A stretch of DNA of 40,885 nucleotides, taken from sequence record DRR723986_609, one strand, 5' to 3'. Of this stretch, positions 22,379 to 35,716 are shown piece by piece (within the stretch, counting starts at the first letter, position 1; the number at the start of each line of letters is the position of its first letter). Both the position numbers and the translations under genes were made by a program. The notes beneath the pieces were generated by a model, which saw nothing but the letters and a program-made list of their open reading frames with translations, searched no databases and was not told the origin of the DNA.

Positions 22379-24739
22379 ATGAAAACCTTTATTTTCACAA
22401 TAGCTCTATTTATCTCATCTGGATTGTATGCGCAAAATTTAACGCAAACAGTTAGGGGAACCTTGAAAGACAAGCAAACCTTTGAGCCGTTAATTGGAGC
22501 GAAAATCATTATTGTAGGGACAGAACCTTTGATCGGAGCTGTGTCAGATATAGATGGAAAATTTAGGCTAGAAAATGTCCCGGTAGGAAGACAACAAATC
22601 GCCATCAGCTATGTGGGTTATGAACCTATTGTTTTATCAAACATTGATATAGCTTCAAAAGAAGTGGTTTTAAACTTAGAAATGACTGAAGCCGTGAATA
22701 TGATGAACAAGGTAGAGGTGAAGGCGAATAAAGAAAAAGGCGAACAAATTAATAAAATGGCTACGGTCTCTGTCCGTCAATTTTCTGTTGAACAATCTAA
22801 CAGATTTGCAGGTTCGTTTAATGATGTAGCGAGAATGGCTCAAAATTTTGCCGGTGTTCAAGGTGCGGATGATTCAAGAAATGATATTGTGATCAGAGGA
22901 AATTCTCCAACAGGAGTTTTATTCAGAATGGAGGGAGTTGATATTCCAAATCCTAATCACTTTGCACGTTTTGGTACAACTGGCGGCCCTGTTTCTATTT
23001 TAAATAATAACGTTTTAGCGAACTCAGATTTTATGACTGGCGCCTTTCCCGCTGAGTATGGGAATGCTATAGCAGGGGTTTTTGATTTGAAAATGAAAAC
23101 CGGAAATAATGAGAAGCATGAGTTCATGTTTCAATTTGGCTTCAATGGTGCTGAGCTAATGGCAGAAGGGCCATTGAGCAGAAAAACAGGAGCATCTTAC
23201 TTAGTGAATTACCGTTACTCAACACTTAAACTATTTCAAGTAATCGGAATTAATTTTGGCTCTACAGCTTTACCCAATTATCAAGACGCAGCATTTAAAC
23301 TTAATTTTCCTTCTAAAAGGGGATTAACTACAGTTTTTGGTATGGGAGGATTAAGCAATATTAATATTCTAGCAGAGAATGCAGACAGTACTGATTTGTT
23401 TGCGCTTGATTATTCAAATACTTATTTCAATTCTCAAGTTGGAGTAGTGGGTGTTGCACATAAACAAAGAATTGGAAAAAAGTCATACATCAACGCTTCG
23501 TTAGCTGCTCAAGCAAACGTCAACATAATTGACAATGATACGGTAGATTTTAATTTCGAAAACCCTTTTAAAACTTACGAAAGCAATTCTGTGATTGCAA
23601 AAATTGTAGGGGATGTGTTTTACAATTATAAGATCAATGCTAAAAACATGTTTAAAGTAGGCGTGCATGCTGATTTATTTTTGCTGGATCTTGTTGATTC
23701 TGTATATTCTGGTCCTTCTTTTGGTTTTGAAACCTTAAGAAATTTTACCGGAAACACTTTGTTATTGCAACCTTACGCTCAATACCGATACCGACCTACT
23801 GAAAAAATAACTTTGAATGTTGGTTTGCACTCCCAGACTTTAACCTTGAATTCAGAAACTTCAATTGAACCTAGATTTGGTGCTGCTTGGCAAATGACTA
23901 AAAAAGATCGATTGTCATTTGGTTATGGATTGCATAGTCAAATGCAGCCGATAGAAGTTTATTTTAAGGAAGTGCCAGACGGTACTGGGCAAACAACACA
24001 GCCTAACAATGAATTAAAATTTACTAAAAGTCATCACTTGGTTTTAGGCTACCAACACCGATTTGCTTATGGTATAAACGCAAAACTTGAAGCCTATTAT
24101 CAATCTTTATATGACGTTCCAGTAACCCCGCAACCTTCTTCTTTCTCAATGGTGAATTTTGGTTCTGATTTTAATACCGCTCTACCCGATTCATTAGATA
24201 ATGATGGAACCGCATCAAACTACGGCTTAGAACTGACCCTTGAAAAATATTTGGATAAAGGCTTTTATTTTATGATAACCACGTCAATTTACGAGTCAAA
24301 ATATAAAGGTTCTAACGGTGTAGAATTTAACTCAGCCTTTAACGGAAACTATACCTTTAATACCTTGGCGGGTTACGAATTTAGATTCAAAGAAGGTAAA
24401 AAGATTAAACCATCTTTGACCATAGACTTTAAGTTCACTTATAATGGAGGAAGTAGATATACACCTGTTTTGGTTGAAGAAAGTAATTTGGCTGGTACTG
24501 AAGTGAGAGATTTTTCTCAAACCAATACGCTTACTTATCCTGATTATGTGAAATTAAATGCACGAGTAGCCTTTAAAATGGTAGGTAAAAAAGTCACGCA
24601 AGAAATAGCCTTTGATGCCCAGAATATAACCAACCGAAAAAATGTTTTTGTCCAAGAATATAACGTGCAGTCAGGTAAATTCGAAACAACCTATCAGACA
24701 GGTTTTCTGCCGATAGGTCAAATTCGAATATATTTTTAG
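22379..24739 (+). CDS. TonB-dependent receptor with an N-terminal carboxypeptidase-regulatory-like domain
   Basis: Signal peptide, EPLIGA...DIDGKF.L.NVPVG, plug motif (DVARMAQNFAGV...NDIVIRGNSP), barrel ending in F. Confidence 0.9.
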   Translation: MKTFIFTIALFISSGLYAQNLTQTVRGTLKDKQTFEPLIGAKIIIVGTEPLIGAVSDIDGKFRLENVPVGRQQIAISYVGYEPIVLSNIDIASKEVVLNLEMTEAVNMMNKVEVKANKEKGEQINKMATVSVRQFSVEQSNRFAGSFNDVARMAQNFAGVQGADDSRNDIVIRGNSPTGVLFRMEGVDIPNPNHFARFGTTGGPVSILNNNVLANSDFMTGAFPAEYGNAIAGVFDLKMKTGNNEKHEFMFQFGFNGAELMAEGPLSRKTGASYLVNYRYSTLKLFQVIGINFGSTALPNYQDAAFKLNFPSKRGLTTVFGMGGLSNINILAENADSTDLFALDYSNTYFNSQVGVVGVAHKQRIGKKSYINASLAAQANVNIIDNDTVDFNFENPFKTYESNSVIAKIVGDVFYNYKINAKNMFKVGVHADLFLLDLVDSVYSGPSFGFETLRNFTGNTLLLQPYAQYRYRPTEKITLNVGLHSQTLTLNSETSIEPRFGAAWQMTKKDRLSFGYGLHSQMQPIEVYFKEVPDGTGQTTQPNNELKFTKSHHLVLGYQHRFAYGINAKLEAYYQSLYDVPVTPQPSSFSMVNFGSDFNTALPDSLDNDGTASNYGLELTLEKYLDKGFYFMITTSIYESKYKGSNGVEFNSAFNGNYTFNTLAGYEFRFKEGKKIKPSLTIDFKFTYNGGSRYTPVLVEESNLAGTEVRDFSQTNTLTYPDYVKLNARVAFKMVGKKVTQEIAFDAQNITNRKNVFVQEYNVQSGKFETTYQTGFLPIGQIRIYF

Positions 24740-27315
24740 TATTGTTTCAGTACTTTCTTCGTGAGGACCTGCCCATCTGCTTTAAGCAGACTTACCAAGT
24801 AGAACCCATCCTCAAGGTCCGTAAGGTCAAGTTGGCCTTCAAAAGATCCTAAATTCATTACCTGTTGCCCTTGCATATTATGTACGAATATTTGAGCAAC
24901 ATTTTCAGATGTTAGAATAGTTATTAATCCACTTGTCGGATTAGGGAAGACTTGGTAATCAATTAATTTAGGGTCTAAATCGATTTCATCTACACTACCG
25001 GTTGTGCAATCATCTAGACAGATATTAGAAATACACATGGTAGAATTACCTAATTCAACATAATCAAAATCTCCTTCTATAGTGATATACTGCTCTCCAG
25101 CTATAGTATCAGAAGTATAGGTCCAATTTGGATTGAAAATGGTGGTATCGTAATAAGCTCCATAAATCGTATCTCCGTCAATTGCGGTATAGTAAGCGGC
25201 TAGCACACTATAGGTTAGTTTTTTACAGTTGAAGAGCGAGCTTGAAACATCTATTCCCAGATTACCAATAAAACAGAATTCGTTGTTTGTAGAATCAATA
25301 GAAATTGGATAGAAGTTGGTGCTGTCCACTTTTATTAGGTCAATATCCCCTGATGTCATAAAGACGGACCCGTTAGGATAAGTTGCGTGATCTGTTCCAA
25401 CAGCTTGAATATAGGTGTAACTGTAGTTGCTAAAATCAAGACATGATCCTGATGATGGCGCGCATTCAGCTAAACAAATATCTTTCAAACACATTGTTGA
25501 ATTACCAAATTCAACGTAGTCAAAATCACCTTCAATAGTAACTACTTGGTCTCCTCCGGTTGTATCTGAATGATAGGTCCAATTGGCGTTGTAAATTGTA
25601 GTATCGTAATAAGCGCCATAAATAGTATCACCATCAATAATAGTATAATACGCCGCTAATATTGAGTAGGTCAATTTCTTACAAGCGAAAGATGAAGATG
25701 ATATATCAATTCCTAAATTGCCGATCCAACAGAAGCTGTTTTCGGTTGAGTCTATAGATAGAGGGAAGAAGTTGGTGCTGTCTACTTTGATGAGGTGAAT
25801 GTCTCCTGAAGCCATAAAAGTTGAACCGTTAGGATAGGTCGAATGATCCGAGCCCACATTTTGAATATAAGCGTTACTGTAGTTTCCAAAATCCAAGCAT
25901 GAGTTACTCGAAGGGGCACATTCGGATAAGCAGATGTTTTTAATCGTTGAACTGGTCATCCCAATTTGAACGTAATCAAAAGCACCCTCAATGGTTATTA
26001 ACGGATCCGTAGAGGTATTGCTGACAGTGAAAGTCCAATTAGGTCTATAAATTACCGTGTCAGTATAAGGGTTCCATATGGTATCGCCATCAATTGAATA
26101 CAAAATATTGAATTCGTTAAATGATAGTACTCTGCATGAATAATTTGCTGTTGATACGTCTATCCCAATTTCCCCTACGTAGGATAGAGAATTATTCGTT
26201 GAATCAACGAACTGATAGAATGAGTTGGATGTTGTTGGTTTGATTAATTGAATATCCCCTGAAGTTGCAAAAGTTGATCCTGCGGGATAAGTAACATGGT
26301 CGGTTGAAACTGTATTCATATGAGCATTCGTGTAATCACCAAAATTTAAGCAAGAATTTGATGAACAATCCGTCAAGCAAATGTTGCTTATACATGTGGT
26401 TGATTGGCTGATTTCAACATAATCAAATTGACCAATTATTCCGACTGTTAATTCACCTCCTGTCGTATCTGAATCATAAGTCCAGTTTCCAAAATGAACG
26501 GTGGTATCAGCGTATGTTGGGTTAATGGAATCTCCATCAACAACTATCCAAAATCCCGCAATTAAATCAAAAGTTAACTCTCTACACGCATAATTTGCTG
26601 AAGAAACATCAATGCCTAACCATCCGATATAACACATTTGATTATTCCCAGCATCAATGAACTGGTAAAAACTTGATGTATTGGGCTTAATTAATTGAAT
26701 ATCTCCTTCTGTTATAAAGGCCGAACCGGCTGGGTATGTTGTGTGGTCATTCGTAACATCATTTAAATAAGCATCCGAATAATTACTAAAGTTTAAACAT
26801 GAGGGTCCTCCTGTATCACAAGAGCTTAAGCAGATGTTACTGATACAAGTGGTAGAAGGGCTAATTTCAACATAATCAAAATCTCCTTGGATAGTTATAC
26901 TATGATCTCCACCGGTAGTATCAGAATCAAAAGTCCACATTCCACTTGAGATGGTGGTGTCAGTGTAGCCTACTCCTATAGTGTCGCCGTCAATTGTTAT
27001 CCAAAAACCAGCTACTAAATCAAAGGTTAATTCTCTGCAGCTCGCACTAGAGGTTGAAACATCAATACCCAATTCTCCAATATAACACATTTCATTATCG
27101 GCTGAATTAATGAATTGATAGAAAGTGCTGGTGTTGGGTTTGATGAGCTGTATGTCTCCCTCCACGATAAAAGCAGACCCTGGAGGATAAGTTGCATGAT
27201 CGCTTGATACAGTATTGATATAAGTATCCGTGTAATCCCCAAAATTGATACAGTCAATTTGTGAATATCCAACTGAAAATACAAACGCGATAATAAAAGT
27301 TAAGATGCTTTTCAT
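24736..27315 (-). CDS. T9SS-secreted protein with five tandem ~150-aa Cys-containing repeats
   Basis: Signal peptide ending YSQ, five repeats from C[IL][ND]F to ICL..C, then a CTD (VFPNPTSG...HNMQGQ...LEDGFYLV...KKVLK). Confidence 0.85.
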   Translation of the reverse strand: MKSILTFIIAFVFSVGYSQIDCINFGDYTDTYINTVSSDHATYPPGSAFIVEGDIQLIKPNTSTFYQFINSADNEMCYIGELGIDVSTSSASCRELTFDLVAGFWITIDGDTIGVGYTDTTISSGMWTFDSDTTGGDHSITIQGDFDYVEISPSTTCISNICLSSCDTGGPSCLNFSNYSDAYLNDVTNDHTTYPAGSAFITEGDIQLIKPNTSSFYQFIDAGNNQMCYIGWLGIDVSSANYACRELTFDLIAGFWIVVDGDSINPTYADTTVHFGNWTYDSDTTGGELTVGIIGQFDYVEISQSTTCISNICLTDCSSNSCLNFGDYTNAHMNTVSTDHVTYPAGSTFATSGDIQLIKPTTSNSFYQFVDSTNNSLSYVGEIGIDVSTANYSCRVLSFNEFNILYSIDGDTIWNPYTDTVIYRPNWTFTVSNTSTDPLITIEGAFDYVQIGMTSSTIKNICLSECAPSSNSCLDFGNYSNAYIQNVGSDHSTYPNGSTFMASGDIHLIKVDSTNFFPLSIDSTENSFCWIGNLGIDISSSSFACKKLTYSILAAYYTIIDGDTIYGAYYDTTIYNANWTYHSDTTGGDQVVTIEGDFDYVEFGNSTMCLKDICLAECAPSSGSCLDFSNYSYTYIQAVGTDHATYPNGSVFMTSGDIDLIKVDSTNFYPISIDSTNNEFCFIGNLGIDVSSSLFNCKKLTYSVLAAYYTAIDGDTIYGAYYDTTIFNPNWTYTSDTIAGEQYITIEGDFDYVELGNSTMCISNICLDDCTTGSVDEIDLDPKLIDYQVFPNPTSGLITILTSENVAQIFVHNMQGQQVMNLGSFEGQLDLTDLEDGFYLVSLLKADGQVLTKKVLKQY

Positions 27316-28515: not shown

Positions 28516-28541
28516 AAAACCCTCTCGTCAGAGGGTTTTTT
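28516..28541. terminator. Intrinsic terminator, probably bidirectional
   Basis: Perfect stem-loop AAAACCCTCT-CGTC-AGAGGGTTTT followed by further Ts, between two convergent stop codons (28508 and 28543). Confidence 0.85.
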
Positions 28542-28542
28542 C

Positions 28543-28662
28543 TTAACAACAACTGTTATTTTCATTGCAACAGTTTCCGTTGCAGTTGCAATCACATTGA
28601 CATGATTGTTGTGTTGTGCATTGGCAATTTTCACAATTGCATTTTTCGTTTCTAGTATTCAT
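28543..28662 (-). CDS. Small Cys-rich protein, putative metallothionein (39 aa, 12 Cys); not in the ORF track
   Basis: Hand translation: MNTRNEKCNCENCQCTTQQSCQCDCNCNGNCCNENNSCC*. ATG is preceded by an A-rich leader; it has its own promoter-like motif and is followed by a terminator. Confidence 0.8.
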   Translation of the reverse strand: MNTRNEKCNCENCQCTTQQSCQCDCNCNGNCCNENNSCC

Positions 28663-28700
28663 AACTCTATTTTTTAATTTGACTTTAGTGTCATATATAG

Positions 28701-28726
28701 AGACGAACTACTTAGAAAAAGACGCA
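28701..28726 (-). promoter_or_regulatory. ECF-type promoter for the Cys-rich peptide
   Basis: Minus strand TGCGTC-TTTTTCTAAGTAGTT-CGTCT (15-nt spacer), matching the site upstream of the sigma gene. Confidence 0.7.
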
Positions 28727-28733
28727 ATTTTTA

Positions 28734-29270
28734 TTAACACGAACAGTTTTCATTTGAACTGCCAATAATGTTGCCGTATTTATCTGTTTGAATTTGACAA
28801 CACGAAACAAATAAGTCATTTAATTTTTTTCTAGCTCGCTGAATACGACTTTTGGCTGCAGAATAACTTATGTTTTGCGAAGCAGCGTAATCTTTTTGAG
28901 AAACGTTTTCGAATGCAGTTTTTATAATGGCATCTCTATCTTTTTCATCTAATTGTTGGATATGTGATTTCAGACAACCATAGAACTCTGAGTTTAAATT
29001 TGAATCCGATAAGTCTTCTGGAAGTTCAGGGATTTGGTCGGTGCTAATTTTCTTTTTCCGGTAATAATCAATTATAGAATTTCGGGTAATTTGATAAACC
29101 CATGAGGATAATTTATCCTCATTACTTAGTTTCGAAATATTCATGTGAATTTTAAGAAATACATCTTGCAATATATCCTCACTAATAGATTTTGAATTCA
29201 CCCTTTTCAAGATAAAGTTGAATAATTGATCCTTAAGATCAACCCATATTTCTTCTGTTACAGCATTCAT
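28734..29270 (-). CDS. sigZ: SigZ-type ECF sigma factor with a Cys-rich C-terminus
   Basis: EDILQDVFLKI...SWVYQITRNSIIDYYR, SQKDYA....SYSAAKSRIQRAR and the tail CC.....YGNII......CSC characteristic of SigZ-like sigmas. Confidence 0.8.
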   Translation of the reverse strand: MNAVTEEIWVDLKDQLFNFILKRVNSKSISEDILQDVFLKIHMNISKLSNEDKLSSWVYQITRNSIIDYYRKKKISTDQIPELPEDLSDSNLNSEFYGCLKSHIQQLDEKDRDAIIKTAFENVSQKDYAASQNISYSAAKSRIQRARKKLNDLFVSCCQIQTDKYGNIIGSSNENCSC

Positions 29271-29279
29271 TATTTATAA

Positions 29280-29305
29280 AGACGTATTAAACCAAAAAAG
29301 ATGCA
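29280..29305 (-). promoter_or_regulatory. ECF-type autoregulatory promoter of the SigZ-like gene
   Basis: Minus strand TGCATC-TTTTTTGGTTTAATA-CGTCT (15-nt spacer) ending 9 nt before the ATG. Confidence 0.7.
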
Positions 29306-30596: not shown

Positions 30597-31205
30597 TTAT
30601 TTCAGCTCGTCCATGTCACGAATGAGTTTGTTGATTGGGTCTTTTTTATTTGATCGGTTGATGATTAAAGTACTCACAAAGTATGAAAGTAATAACATTA
30701 TTGGAATTAATAAAAATAGATACCAGTTAGAAATCGCCAACCCATCTATACCAAGCATTTCACCCAAATTTTCATGACTTTTTTTAATGCAGCTGTAAAT
30801 GATCATAGGAGTCATGATTATTGGAATTGAAAGTAAACCAAGATTTCGGTTGAATCTTGTGAGTTGATCCCTTTTTAATTTAAAGGCCAATAAATACTGA
30901 TAGCAATTATCTTGAAAGTCAATCTTTTTTATTCTTTTTAGTTGATATAAGCCGAGGAACGTCCAAGGAATCATTACGGCTGCACTTAGAAGTCCCCAAA
31001 TAAGATCATTGCCAACAAAGTAATTAATTAGCACCATTAAAGCAGAAGCCGGTATCATTAAATAGGCACCGAACCTCATTTTATCTTCTTCTTTGCTTAT
31101 TGACATTTTTGACTTCATATTGTAAAAAGCAATCACCTTAGGTGCTATCAATTCATTCGATTCAATAAAACCTTTTTTCCAGATATTTTCAATTGATTTT
31201 TCCAT
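30597..31205 (-). CDS. Four-TM membrane protein, probable anti-sigma partner
   Basis: Overlaps the ECF gene end by 17 nt. 'MEKSIENIWK' N-terminus, four hydrophobic helices and a C-terminal 'LIRDMDELK'. Confidence 0.65.
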   Translation of the reverse strand: MEKSIENIWKKGFIESNELIAPKVIAFYNMKSKMSISKEEDKMRFGAYLMIPASALMVLINYFVGNDLIWGLLSAAVMIPWTFLGLYQLKRIKKIDFQDNCYQYLLAFKLKRDQLTRFNRNLGLLSIPIIMTPMIIYSCIKKSHENLGEMLGIDGLAISNWYLFLLIPIMLLLSYFVSTLIINRSNKKDPINKLIRDMDELK

Positions 31206-31680
31206 CTAATAATTTTTTTAATCGTTCTTTAATTCTATTAATTCTAACTCCAATATTGTTGGATGTTGTTCCAGTGATACTTGCGATTTCTTCATACGAT
31301 TTTTCCTCCAAATACAGCAAAATTACAGCTCTATCAACTTCAGAAAGTCGTTTAATTGCGAGATAAAGGAGATTTAAATCCTCATCATCAAATACTTTTG
31401 AATCCTCGAGTAATTCAGTTGGTATTTCCTGTTCAGAATGGTTTAGTTTTATTTTCTTGTCCTTCTTTAATAGAGTCAAACAGACGTTAAGAGATACTTT
31501 GTAAACCCATGTTGACCATTCAGATTTATGTAGAAATTTTTCATGACTTCGCCAAATTTGAAGGCAAACTTCTTGATAATAATCTTCAAAATCTTCTTGG
31601 GTGTTACTATATGCCCTGCACATCTTTATAATAATGCCAGCGTAAGGAAGAATGAATTGTTTGTAAAAGTCGCTACTCAC
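31189..31680 (-). CDS. ECF sigma factor (GTG start)
   Basis: DFEDYYQEVCLQIW...STWVYKVSLN and DRAVILLYLEEKSYEEIA...NIGVRINRIK. Confidence 0.9.
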   Translation of the reverse strand: MSSDFYKQFILPYAGIIIKMCRAYSNTQEDFEDYYQEVCLQIWRSHEKFLHKSEWSTWVYKVSLNVCLTLLKKDKKIKLNHSEQEIPTELLEDSKVFDDEDLNLLYLAIKRLSEVDRAVILLYLEEKSYEEIASITGTTSNNIGVRINRIKERLKKLLDGKIN

Positions 31681-33067: not shown

Positions 33068-33403
33068 ATGAGCAAAACATATTACGATCCAGATGATTTA
33101 AAGAAATTCGGTGATATCGCTGATTTTGAGCCAAAACTTGCCGATAAATTTTTTGATTATTATGGTGAGGTTTTTAAAGAAGGAGCGCTTACCGAAAGAG
33201 AAAAGTCTTTAATAGCACTTGCGGTATCTCATGCAGTGCAATGTCCTTATTGTATTGACGCCTATACACAAGACACACTTTCAAAAGGATGCTCCGAAGC
33301 TCAGATGATGGAGGCTGTTCATGTGGCTGCAGCTATTAAAGGCGGTGCAGCTTTAGTACATGGTGTACAAATGATGAACAAGGTGAAAAAACTCTCAATG
33401 TAA
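33068..33403 (+). CDS. AhpD/CMD-family protein (arsenosugar-biosynthesis-associated peroxidase-like)
   Basis: ALTEREKSLIALAVSHAVQCPYCIDAY...EAVHVAAAI.GGA.LVHG. Start at ATG 33068; 2 nt upstream of arsS. Confidence 0.85.
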   Translation: MSKTYYDPDDLKKFGDIADFEPKLADKFFDYYGEVFKEGALTEREKSLIALAVSHAVQCPYCIDAYTQDTLSKGCSEAQMMEAVHVAAAIKGGAALVHGVQMMNKVKKLSM

Positions 33404-33405
33404 TT

Positions 33406-34461
33406 ATGGCAAAATCTCTTAAGGCACAAGGACATAAACTTGCTAAGATTGAAGAACAAATTAAGGTACTTAATGGCGGTGATTTTGAATCAGGTGATTT
33501 ACCAACTTTTGGTCAAAAGATAGCTGAGATAGGTCACGCTCCTTTAAAACCCTCTAAATTGGAAGTTTTTCAAATCAATCTGGGCTACATGTGCAATCAA
33601 ACATGTGCACACTGTCATGTAGATGCTGGTCCTGACAGAAAAGAGATCATGACGCGCGAAACCATGCAGCAATGTGTTGACGTTATTGCTCAGCATGATT
33701 TTCCAACAGTAGATTTAACAGGAGGAGCTCCGGAAATGAATCCTGACTTCAGATGGTTTGTAGAGCAATTAACAGCTGCTGGAGCTAAAGAAATTATTGT
33801 AAGATGTAATTTGACTATCATTCTTGCCAATAAAAAATACCATGATTTACCTGAGTTTTTCAAGAAACATAAAATTAGAGTAGTCAGTTCTTTACCTTAT
33901 TATGAAGCCAGTAAAACTGATCGTCAGAGAGGTGATGGTGTTTTCGGAAAGTCTATTCAAGCTCTTCAAATGTTGAATGAAATTGGTTATGGCAAAGAAG
34001 GCACAGGCCTAATATTAGATCTTGTTTATAATCCCGCTGGAGCATTCTTGCCAGGAAATCAGGCTGCTCTTGAACAAGATTTTAAAAAGTCGTTAATGGC
34101 CAATTTTGAAATCGTATTTAATAACTTATTGGCCATAACTAATCTTCCTATTAGTCGTTTCTTGGATTACCTGATTAGATCAGAAAATTATCAGGAGTAT
34201 ATGGAGAAGTTGGTGGATGCCTACAATCCTGGAGCAGTAGAAAACGTCATGTGCAGAAACACCATAAGTATTGATTGGGAAGGGTACATGTACGACTGTG
34301 ATTTCAATCAAATGTTGTTGCTAAAAACAGATGAAAAAGTGGGTCAACACATTAGCGAATTCGATTTAGATAAAATCAATTCTAGAACGATAAAAATAGG
34401 GCAACACTGTTACGGATGCACTGCTGGTGCTGGTTCGAGTTGTCAGGGTGTTGTGGCTTAA
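33406..34461 (+). CDS. arsS: Radical SAM protein of the ArsS (arsenosugar biosynthesis) family
   Basis: CNQTCAHCHVDAGP cluster motif, DLTGGAPEMNP and C-terminal MCR..ISIDW.G..YDCDFNQ...HCYGCTAGAGSSC. Confidence 0.85.
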   Translation: MAKSLKAQGHKLAKIEEQIKVLNGGDFESGDLPTFGQKIAEIGHAPLKPSKLEVFQINLGYMCNQTCAHCHVDAGPDRKEIMTRETMQQCVDVIAQHDFPTVDLTGGAPEMNPDFRWFVEQLTAAGAKEIIVRCNLTIILANKKYHDLPEFFKKHKIRVVSSLPYYEASKTDRQRGDGVFGKSIQALQMLNEIGYGKEGTGLILDLVYNPAGAFLPGNQAALEQDFKKSLMANFEIVFNNLLAITNLPISRFLDYLIRSENYQEYMEKLVDAYNPGAVENVMCRNTISIDWEGYMYDCDFNQMLLLKTDEKVGQHISEFDLDKINSRTIKIGQHCYGCTAGAGSSCQGVVA

Positions 34462-34465
34462 AATA

Positions 34466-35716
34466 CTAGTTTCTCCAATCGTGAATCTCGGCTAGCTGCT
34501 CGTTGATGTAATTTTCAAAGTGTTCATTCTCAAACGATTCAATCACTTCACCAATGAAGGCTCGCACCAATAATTTTTTCGCGTTCTCTTTTGAAATTCC
34601 TCTGGCCTGTAAATAGAAGATAGCTTCATCATCTAATTGACCAGTCGTAGAGCCATGAGAACATTTAACGTCATCCGCATAAATTTCTAATTCGGGTTTA
34701 GAGTTTATTTTGGCATAATCAGATAACAAAATGTTTCCATTATTTTGATAAGCGTTAATCACCTGTGCATCCTTTTGAACCACAACTCGTCCGTTAAAAA
34801 CGCCTGTCGATTTGCCGCCTAAAACATATTTGTAGTTTTCATCACTCATGCAATTCGGCACCTGGTGGTCAACAAAAGTGTGGTTATCCACCACCTCATT
34901 ATCCTTTGTAATTACAGCTCCATTCATGAAGGTTTCGCAGTTCTCACCTGCAACCGCAATATTGATATTGTTTCTCACCAAAGCACCGCTTAATGTGATG
35001 GTGTTGATTTTAAATACTGAATTTCGTTCTTGGTGCACTTGCTCGGTTGAAATAATTGAATTGCTTCTCTCATCTAGCTGCGCCTTGTTAATTTTCAAAT
35101 GCGAGTTTTCAGAAACATAAGCCTCTGTGACATGATTAGTAAAACTATCAGTACTTTCTTTTGATATGAAGGTTTGGATAATCTCACTTTGTGATGATTT
35201 TCCAGCATCAATGTATAGTCTAGTATTTGCTATTATCTGATTGCCTTTTGAGACATAGATGATTTGCAGAGGACCTTTATTAATTTTATTCGCACCAATC
35301 TTTATTGAAATCACTTTTTCAAAAAACGCAGAATTGATAGATGAAAAAACATCTTTTTTATTCAAATTTTTATCGAAATAGTGCTCTTCGGCCATTCTAT
35401 CCGCACCTAAAAAATCTATTTCAAAATCCAACTTAGAAAATTGACTCAAATCTTCTCTAACGAATCCGTTCACGACCACAATATAATCGTTGGAGATAAT
35501 ATGCTTAGTCAGGTTTAATTTATCAGGATCGGCAAATTTTGAAAGTTCTAATTTCGTAAGCTTACCTAACCTAGTGTATTTCCAGTATTCATCCCTTGTG
35601 GACGGAAAGTCTAATTCACCGAGACGTTCTGCTGCCCTTTGCTGAAAATCTGCAGACGAAACATCTAAATTTTTGATGAAATTGGTTACTTTATTTGATG
35701 TTGTTATTTCTGACAT
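34466..35716 (-). CDS. sufD: Fe-S cluster assembly protein SufD
   Basis: FP..RDEYWKYT, GVFNG, KPELEIYADDVKCSHG and FYLQARGI motifs. Start at MSEITT. Confidence 0.93.
   Translation of the reverse strand: MSEITTSNKVTNFIKNLDVSSADFQQRAAERLGELDFPSTRDEYWKYTRLGKLTKLELSKFADPDKLNLTKHIISNDYIVVVNGFVREDLSQFSKLDFEIDFLGADRMAEEHYFDKNLNKKDVFSSINSAFFEKVISIKIGANKINKGPLQIIYVSKGNQIIANTRLYIDAGKSSQSEIIQTFISKESTDSFTNHVTEAYVSENSHLKINKAQLDERSNSIISTEQVHQERNSVFKINTITLSGALVRNNINIAVAGENCETFMNGAVITKDNEVVDNHTFVDHQVPNCMSDENYKYVLGGKSTGVFNGRVVVQKDAQVINAYQNNGNILLSDYAKINSKPELEIYADDVKCSHGSTTGQLDDEAIFYLQARGISKENAKKLLVRAFIGEVIESFENEHFENYINEQLAEIHDWRN

Follow-up and report, generated by a model that had tools for sequence, protein, structure and literature searches.

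A stretch of 40,885 nucleotides (nt) from sequence record DRR723986_609, referred to here as the window, carries a sigma factor gene and a small peptide gene that together probably serve as a self-contained alarm against arsenic or soft metals and a sponge for them. The module lies at positions 28516-29305 with both genes on the minus strand. The first gene encodes an extracytoplasmic function (ECF) sigma factor of the SigZ type, which ends in a cysteine (Cys)-bearing tail. The second is unannotated and encodes a peptide of 39 amino acids (aa) that resembles metallothioneins. Copies of one motif stand upstream of both genes, and the same combination of sigma gene, motif and Cys-rich peptide gene is found in related genomes. 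The module is composed of the following parts.

29281-29305, minus strand: predicted promoter of the sigma gene, with -35-like TGCATC (29305-29300), a T-run, a 15-nt spacer and -10-like CGTC (29284-29281).

28734-29270, minus strand: SigZ-type ECF sigma gene, 178 aa, with Sigma70_r2 and Sigma70_r4_2 domains; ATG at 29270.

28702-28726, minus strand: predicted promoter of the peptide gene, with TGCGTC (28726-28721), a T-run, a 15-nt spacer and CGTC.

28543-28662, minus strand: unannotated 39-codon gene for the metallothionein-like peptide MNTRNEKCNCENCQCTTQQSCQCDCNCNGNCCNENNSCC, with 12 Cys; ATG at 28662.

28516-28539, minus strand: intrinsic terminator-like hairpin of 10 pairs followed by a T-run, which ends the module.

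This layout agrees with the original prediction, made from the DNA alone, that a sigma gene, a Cys-rich peptide gene and a terminator form one unit: the open reading frames (ORFs), the motif pair and the hairpin at 28539-28516 are all present. The peptide promoter begins 8 nt past the sigma stop codon and there is no terminator between the two genes. The next gene downstream of the module is convergent and encodes an alpha/beta hydrolase, and the hairpin is terminator-like on the plus strand too, where it would serve this gene. The prediction was also right that an adjacent anti-sigma gene is missing. No anti-sigma candidate adjoins the sigma gene, and no anti-sigma family was found among its neighbours with Pfam and NCBIfam. 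An 88-aa ORF upstream of the sigma gene matches no family in these two databases and was rejected as a partner, as it recurs in just 1 of 128 loci searched, the near-identical locus L001. Similarly, the upstream genes for ABM and HutD were rejected as partners; their homologues were found in the window's own region only and in none of 104 related loci searched. The sigma promoter of L001 differs by one spacer base. In G001, the nearest genome (93% complete and sharing 41% of sampled words with the window), the sigma is 99% identical and the mean column identity over the full unit is 98%; a single spacer base of the sigma promoter is changed. Pieces of the unit are present in two metatranscriptome runs: a 256-nt contig spanning 28468-28705 and a 184-nt contig spanning 29054-29237 in run X5, and a 151-nt contig in run X6 that spans 28593-28744 and bridges the sigma stop and the peptide start. 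These contigs weigh neither way, as the hydrolase gene is covered too, strand and starts are not readable, and DNA carry-over is possible.

The motif upstream of the sigma gene ends in CGTCT at 29284-29280, 10 nt before the ATG, and the sigma mRNA would therefore be nearly leaderless. The copy upstream of the peptide gene ends in CGTCT at 28705-28701, about 40 nt before the ATG. The two 15-nt spacers had been described as identical; they are equal in length and both start with TTTTT, but their sequences differ. The pattern TGCRTC-N15-CGTC has exactly 2 matches in the 40,885 bases on both strands, while 100 shuffles of the window gave a mean of 0.04 matches, with 2 matches in a single one of them. 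When the spacer is relaxed to N14-17, one more site appears at 34766-34791 on the plus strand, with a T-run and a 16-nt spacer. It is antisense inside sufD, is also present in G001, has no plausible gene behind it and is taken as a chance match.

Relatives of the sigma were compared in three samples. The first comprises the best 80 of 515 sigma relatives in one-genome-per-species contigs, the second the 25 genomes that carry the sigma among 301 of the nearest genome's order (24 loci excluding that of G001), and the third metagenome contigs. An ORF was counted as Cys-rich when it encoded 20-110 aa with at least 7 Cys and at least 18% Cys, lay within 500 nt of the sigma gene, and was either on the sigma's strand or behind the motif. 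The pattern TGC[AG]TC-N14-17-CGTC was counted in 103 loci, from which the duplicates L012 and L103 had been removed (1.38 megabases over both strands); it has 117 sites, against 5 for the backwards pattern. Just upstream of a recognised gene, on its coding strand, lie 91 of the 117: 34 before the sigma gene, 25 before a Cys-rich ORF, 22 before arsM, 4 each before ArsP and DUF2703 genes, and 2 before ArsI. The 26 sites elsewhere include some before a second type of peptide, described below, and before more distant arsM and ArsP genes. The consensus is TGCGTC, a T-run and CGTC, and the whole spacer measures 15 nt at 35 sites and 16 nt at 55 sites. The motif is found upstream of the sigma gene in 25 of the best 80 relatives and in 14 of the 24 order loci, so autoregulation would be common, though not universal, in the family. 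Among loci that have a Cys-rich ORF, the motif precedes it in 15 of 16 in the best-80 sample and in 11 of 20 in the order sample. These counts bear out the earlier claim of a shared bipartite promoter with a CGTC-type -10, and the comparison supports the motif as a promoter specific to the SigZ-type sigma family. That the sigma drives both promoters in the window is very likely.

The original prediction had also proposed a genome scan for the motif as a way to define the regulon. Such a scan of G001 gave 18 loose matches, compared with 10 for a control. Three of the 18 have a T-run, and these are the sigma site, the peptide site and the antisense site in sufD. Since only the first two are plausible, the regulon in this organism would, on present evidence, be the two genes themselves.

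The sigma is an ECF sigma (group 4 of the sigma-70 family) by its domains. It matches Sigma70_r2 (E-value 1.1e-12) and Sigma70_r4_2 (E-value 4.9e-10) in Pfam, and TIGR02937 with 81.1 bits (cut-off 42.9). Two SigZ models are its top-scoring models by a wide margin, yet both scores are under the curated cut-offs (TIGR02959, 166.7 bits against 168.65; NF007215, 180.3 bits against 212), and the protein is therefore filed as SigZ-type or SigZ-like and not as a SigZ equivalog. A search of 5.8 billion proteins returned 794 relatives, and NCBI uses the name SigZ for several that are 50-55% identical and belong to Flavobacteriales, Crocinitomicaceae and other Bacteroidota. The C-terminus reads CC (157-158), 17 residues and C-S-C (176-178), exactly the tail first noticed in the DNA. 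Five Cys are invariant in an alignment of 34 sequences, namely C99 in the linker and C157, C158, C176 and C178 in the tail; the same holds for D163, Y165, G166 and N167, which lie between the Cys pairs. In an AlphaFold2 model (mean predicted local distance difference test score 78.6 and predicted template modelling score 0.42, with linker residues 84-93 below 50 on the former), the last sigma-4 helix runs to residue 158 and a beta-hairpin with strands 160-162 and 168-171 is predicted between the Cys pairs. A search of the PDB found no relative beyond generic ECF sigmas, which aligned over sigma-2 and sigma-4. Two metagenome loci, L131 (1492-1710) and L132 (1040-1258), have an ORF that ends 72 codons after the sigma ATG, yet at the protein level the match extends over residues 6-178. 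A broken gene, a frameshift or a mistake in assembly could explain this, and both loci retain the Cys-rich ORF plus both motifs.

The literature on this sigma group is cited here from passages of the articles concerned. SigZ of Bacillus subtilis and CorE2 of Myxococcus xanthus share group ECF238, into which ECF24 and ECF44 were merged; its members lack an anti-sigma and carry a short C-terminal extension of about 20 aa that bears Cys, and it has been suggested that the C-terminal Cys of SigZ are possibly functional (PMC7826278). The window sigma has such an extension, CC-x17-CxC after sigma-4 and invariant in the 34 sequences, and its neighbourhood in the window lacks an anti-sigma gene, as is also described for SigZ (PMC7826278). 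Its best-matching models are those of the SigZ/ECF24 branch, with scores just under both curated cut-offs. Sequence comparison places it, as a candidate member, in the branch of ECF238 that contains SigZ (former ECF24). Within ECF238, only CorE and CorE2 have been studied experimentally (PMC8103513). CorE2 is activated by Cd and Zn via its Cys-rich tail and without an anti-sigma (PMC7826278, PMC4937300), and in both CorE and CorE2 the Cys-rich tail and a CxC in the linker are essential (PMC4937300, PMC8999054). Both resemble the window sigma in having sigma-2 and sigma-4 only, no anti-sigma, a Cys-rich C-terminus and Cys in the linker, and both are activated by the ligand itself (PMC4937300, PMC8999054), which for the window sigma is proposed by analogy. 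CorE-like proteins have the linker CxC and a C-terminal Cys-rich domain of 28-38 residues with 6 Cys (PMC4937300), while the window sigma has the single linker residue C99 and 4 Cys in its last 22 residues. The linker CxC is confined to the former ECF44 part, which makes up about 15% of ECF238 (PMC8999054). The sigma thus differs from the CorE-like proteins in both sequence features, and it may work like CorE, yet it is not a member of the CorE subgroup. The likeness to CorE and CorE2 that had been drawn at the outset stands insofar as the ECF238 link is published, and is an analogy only as far as the CxC and the 6-Cys tail are concerned. Further differences are that the CorE targets described in these passages are pumps and oxidases whereas the window target is a Cys-rich peptide, and that CorE only partly autoregulates whereas the window sigma gene has its own copy of the promoter. 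On this analogy, gating of the sigma by a ligand is plausible.

Metallothioneins are small proteins that are rich in Cys, arranged as CxC and CC, have hardly any aromatic residues or none, and bind metals or metalloids through thiolates. The window peptide has the sequence features of this group: it is small, 12 of its 39 residues are Cys (31%) with CxC and CC motifs, many others are asparagine (Asn), and there is no F, W, Y or H. It matches no family of Pfam or NCBIfam at E-values up to 0.1, metallothionein families included, and its exact sequence is absent from a collection of 15 billion predicted proteins. Of 10 such peptides checked by exact sequence, 8 are absent from that collection. 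The remaining two are hypothetical proteins at NCBI, and in UniRef a close cluster member, an 89-aa Flammeovirga homologue, has the name 'Metallothionein'. Look-alikes in the Atlas had best scores of 0.81-0.84 (0.81 for the 'Metallothionein TY1' cluster), which is under the level that counts, and they were set aside. It is likely that the peptide binds metals or metalloids.

The peptide gene is judged to be real and coding because its Cys codons are kept through synonymous switches while other codons diverge. The closest independent locus, L126, has a sigma that is 68% identical and a 40-aa peptide homologue behind the same motif. Of the 12 Cys columns in the alignment of the two peptide genes 11 are conserved, with synonymous TGC/TGT switches at 5, and elsewhere 17 of 39 aligned codons are non-synonymous. 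A strain variant in a public contig has four peptide residues changed and every Cys kept, one by a synonymous change. The small ORF could instead be untranslated and act as a small RNA, or the motif could be the operator of another regulator and not a promoter. Such a role would fit the strong folding (z -5.17) of the 201-nt region from the predicted transcription start to the terminator, and TGCGTC and CGTC do make a short direct repeat. However, the terminator is included in that region, the folds of the ORF alone are ordinary in 8 loci (z -2.44 to +0.80, with only 1 below -2), and a search against Rfam at E-values up to 1 returned nothing; on these grounds the small-RNA reading was set aside. 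The ATG, the stop and the Cys codons are kept despite nucleotide divergence, the motif stands in a single orientation with its end 16-56 nt from the start codons of 25 peptide genes, and no other regulator gene is conserved nearby. A leader peptide that works as a Cys-codon attenuator was ruled out since the next gene is convergent and there is no same-strand downstream gene to control. Against this evidence a role as RNA or operator is barely credible.

Across the loci, 37 adjacent Cys-rich peptides were found, with lengths of 26-61 aa and 19-38% Cys. Taken together they consist of 28.1% Cys and 16.7% Asn; aromatic residues occur in 4 of them, and CC is the C-terminal pair in 18. A second type, a 63-65-aa ORF with 8 Cys, is present in L056, L070 and L122; it is below the threshold of the rule and was flagged by hand. 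The peptide of L056 matches an N-terminal extension of the arsM product of L073 (53% identity over 38 residues, E-value 5e-10). The latter, at L073:2972-3919 in a Mariprofundaceae genome, is thus a natural fusion of arsM with an extension homologous to the free peptides that follow this promoter in L056, L070 and L122, and it ties such Cys-rich peptides to arsenic handling or methylation. A further small ORF follows the Cys-rich one at L104:2360-2467, L107:1063-1173, L056:5146-5346 and L072:4577-4774. Its product has a signal-peptide-like N-terminus and CC motifs, and some members of the family may thus have a Cys-rich partner that is exported.

The synteny survey suggested in the original prediction found an adjacent Cys-rich ORF in 22 of the 25 order loci (21 by the threshold, including that of G001, and 1 by hand). 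Counted by the rule alone, 16 of the best 80 loci have such an ORF, as do 20 of the 24 order loci that remain when that of G001 is set apart. It lies downstream of the sigma gene in 14 of these 16 and 10 of these 20 loci, and upstream in 2 and 10, respectively. The neighbours of the sigma gene in the best 80 loci are a Cys-rich ORF (16), the second peptide type (2, by hand), arsM (26), ArsP (5), DUF2703 (5), ArsI (2) or none of these (24). That the sigma and the Cys-rich peptide are a conserved two-gene module free of an anti-sigma is well supported by this comparison of loci.

In a maximum-likelihood tree of 103 sigmas, the window sigma falls in a clade of 22 rows (Shimodaira-Hasegawa-like approximate likelihood ratio test, SH-aLRT, 84), 20 of which are peptide-linked, from Bacteroidota and Balneolota. 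In a second clade, which has 12 rows and support 99, 11 rows are peptide-linked and the peptide lies mostly upstream. The rows linked to ars-type genes form the other large part of the tree. The neighbour labels need 29 changes on the tree, while the shuffled mean is 55.8 and none of 200 shuffles was as low. Because kin share labels, this result is one of clustering and not of independent events. In one clade, made up of 9 sigmas, the CC pair is reduced to a single Cys and the tail no longer has any (L024, L026, L028, L033, L042, L043, L048, L061 and L071, from Maribacter, Aquimarina, Tenacibaculum, Fulvivirga and a Cyclobacteriaceae genome), and none of the 9 has the motif, a Cys-rich neighbour or an ars-type neighbour. 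This joint loss of Cys, promoter and target, as it appears from the sequences, would be a single event in a single clade, in the expected direction. It bears on another explanation, in which the Cys form only a structural element like a zinc knuckle, the sigma is controlled by nothing but its own transcription or stability, and the peptide is unrelated to sequestration. The tail is indeed predicted as an ordered beta-hairpin between two Cys pairs, which we take to resemble a zinc knuckle. Yet the Cys are lost together with promoter and target in that clade, the equivalent tail of CorE2 is a sensor, and a purely autoregulated sigma needs some input. A purely structural role is for these reasons very improbable.

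The neighbours of the sigma in other phyla suggest what the signal could be. Four ars-type references were searched, and a match was counted when it lay on the sigma's strand at most 300 nt away. Such a gene adjoins the sigma gene in 38 of the 80 loci (arsM in 26, an ArsP_1 permease in 5, DUF2703 in 5 and ArsI/CadI in 2), and the motif precedes 31 of the 38. Representatives score 329-373 bits with the arsenite methyltransferase model NF008823 (cut-off 263), the ArsI/CadI representative scores 148 bits (cut-off 116), and those of ArsP_1 and DUF2703 are over their Pfam cut-offs. According to record titles, the ars-linked loci belong to Bacillota, Pseudomonadota, Chloroflexota, Acidobacteriota, Verrucomicrobiota, Nitrospirota, Thermodesulfobacteriota, Myxococcota, Spirochaetota and some Bacteroidota. 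Since ars-type genes stand behind the same promoter in these other phyla, the likeliest inducer would be arsenite or a related thiophilic metalloid and not a classical metal. The generic metal signal of the original prediction is thus kept as a thiophilic ligand, with arsenite or a metalloid preferred on account of the 38 loci of 80. We give an even chance to As(III) or a close relative being the natural inducer, a judgement drawn from gene neighbourhoods.

A classical soft metal (Cd, Zn or Cu) could be the ligand instead, in the manner of CorE and CorE2, with the peptide a true metal-cluster metallothionein. Cd and Zn elicit a response from CorE2, which is in the same ECF group, and Cu from CorE; the CxC and CC motifs and the missing aromatics of the peptide fit metallothioneins; and the 89-aa Flammeovirga homologue has that name in UniRef. 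The ArsP_1 relatives match a Cu/Zn efflux model as well, and the ArsI/CadI family includes a Cd-linked protein. However, arsM is the commonest neighbour behind the promoter (26 of 80 loci) and is over the arsenite methyltransferase cut-off where checked. Metals are not known to be substrates of its product. In the ORFs listed, no P-type ATPase, cation diffusion facilitator (CDF) or resistance-nodulation-division (RND) pump was recognised behind the motif, where the systematic search was of the four ars-type references only. The sigma also lacks the CorE-type CxC and 6-Cys tail, and a classical metal is, all in all, unlikely as the signal. It has also been considered, already in the original prediction, that the Cys sense thiol or redox stress through disulfides, with the peptide as a sacrificial thiol buffer. 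CC and CxC pairs can form disulfides, and the DUF2703 relatives match a thioredoxin-like family. Redox sensing is nevertheless quite improbable, because the neighbour genes are those of arsenic or metal detoxification, no thioredoxin or peroxiredoxin system was recognised among the ORFs listed, and the characterised ECF238 members are metal-dependent.

Several points weigh against a metalloid-sensing sigma that controls a peptide sponge. The window's own clade has no arsenic gene behind the promoter, and the arsenic link is therefore carried over from sigmas that are about 40-50% identical. The neighbour genes are not strictly arsenic-specific, since the Cu/Zn efflux model also picks up ArsP_1 relatives and the ArsI/CadI family covers both proteins jointly. 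A change of just one Cys is enough to turn the specificity of CorE2 from Cd to Cu (PMC4937300), and the identity of the ligand may for that reason not transfer between relatives. The AlphaFold2 model yields no distances between the Cys, so that a joint site of all five is putative. Additionally, the motif pattern misses 9 of the 20 peptide genes in the order sample; these may have variant promoters or be co-transcribed with the sigma.

Arsenic genes are also found elsewhere. In the window, a gene for ArsS, a radical SAM protein of arsenosugar biosynthesis (TIGR04167, 451 bits, cut-off 300), and one for its peroxidase-like partner (TIGR04169, 193 bits, cut-off 120) occupy 33074-34461 on the plus strand, 4 kb from the sigma gene and on the opposite strand. 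The partner was not found beside the sigma in any of 104 other loci searched. The ArsS query had no matches anywhere, where the searched region of the window itself stopped short of ArsS. Genomes G001, G208 and G003 have no Acr3 by TIGR00832 and one arsM-like match each, below the family cut-off and not adjoining the sigma gene. These ArsS and arsM-like genes were set aside as support for the arsenic link.

Three further ORFs lie near the module. A second, unrelated ECF sigma gene (163 aa) is present at 31189-31680 on the minus strand, and a 202-aa ORF at 30597-31205 on the same strand overlaps it by 17 bases. The latter matches no family above cut-off and has one weak match to DUF6320 (E-value 0.033), and together the two look like an ordinary sigma/anti-sigma pair. 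An 859-aa ORF at 24736-27315 on the minus strand, read by eye from its translation, consists of five similar units of about 150 aa, each with many conserved Cys, and its short final segment resembles a type IX secretion sorting signal.

We infer the transcription starts, the binding and identity of the ligand, and the feedback in the following scheme. The five conserved Cys of the anti-sigma-free sigma would bind a thiophilic ligand, most likely As(III) or a related metalloid, and this would make the sigma competent for transcription. As(III) is typically held by three thiolates, and with five conserved Cys in the sigma such three-thiolate binding would be possible. The activated sigma would amplify its own gene from the TGCRTC-TTTT-N-CGTC promoter, with a nearly leaderless mRNA, and would also switch on the gene of the 39-residue peptide from the second promoter copy, with the terminator closing the unit. 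The peptide would act as a cytoplasmic thiol sponge for the same ligand. As the free ligand falls, the sigma would be switched off again in a negative feedback. That the module is, in this sense, a self-contained regulon of two genes, a metalloid-sensing sigma and a peptide sponge with feedback, is held with moderate confidence.

SmtA and BmtA are inducible, small, Cys-rich cytoplasmic proteins with an adjacently encoded sensor, SmtB of the ArsR family. The window peptide matches no Pfam family at E-values up to 0.1 and, unlike these proteins, is without His or aromatic residues. The SmtB system works by de-repression, whereas the window module would use an activator sigma, and the contrast that had been drawn between activator logic and SmtB/ArsR-type repression was judged fair. 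In ArsR-controlled ars operons, As(III) is sensed through thiols over genes of the arsM and arsP type. The same gene families adjoin this sigma family in other phyla. There the sensor is a repressor, while here the sigma subunit itself would sense, and the output would be a peptide and not an enzyme or a pump. Burkholderia cenocepacia has an iron-starvation sigma from a different ECF group, OrbS, which is reportedly an ECF sigma with an on-board metal sensor. Full-text searches found no paper on a SigZ promoter, a SigZ-linked peptide or a link of SigZ to arsenic or arsM. The main text of PMC7826278, to which this look-up was confined, has neither 'methyltransferase' nor 'arsen'; the supplementary group descriptions and the ECF Hub may give a promoter logo and context for ECF238. 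The passages of PMC12607644 and PMC8871858 that were checked are irrelevant here.

In the literature texts examined, as far as their passages go, SigZ is an orphan sigma with no function, promoter or regulon given. The present comparison supplies a precise promoter, a minimal two-gene regulon in the nearest genome and a candidate signal for a SigZ-type sigma. An ECF sigma with a sensing C-terminal extension is already known; an unannotated family of metallothionein-like peptides as the output would be new. Extended to the whole family, we consider it possible, at somewhat less than an even chance, that SigZ-type sigmas are one-component sensors of As(III) or thiophilic metalloids, which sense through a linker Cys and CC...CxC, use one promoter across at least 10 phyla, and in Bacteroidota and Balneolota have as their main output unannotated Asn- and Cys-rich metallothionein-like peptides, whose sequestration of the metalloid completes a negative feedback. 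If true, a sigma subunit that senses As(III) would add a mode of arsenic-gene control beside repressors of the ArsR type. The sigma, the promoter and the peptide would together be a compact orthogonal biosensor part, and the peptides would form a sizeable bacterial metallothionein-like family that gene callers have mostly missed.

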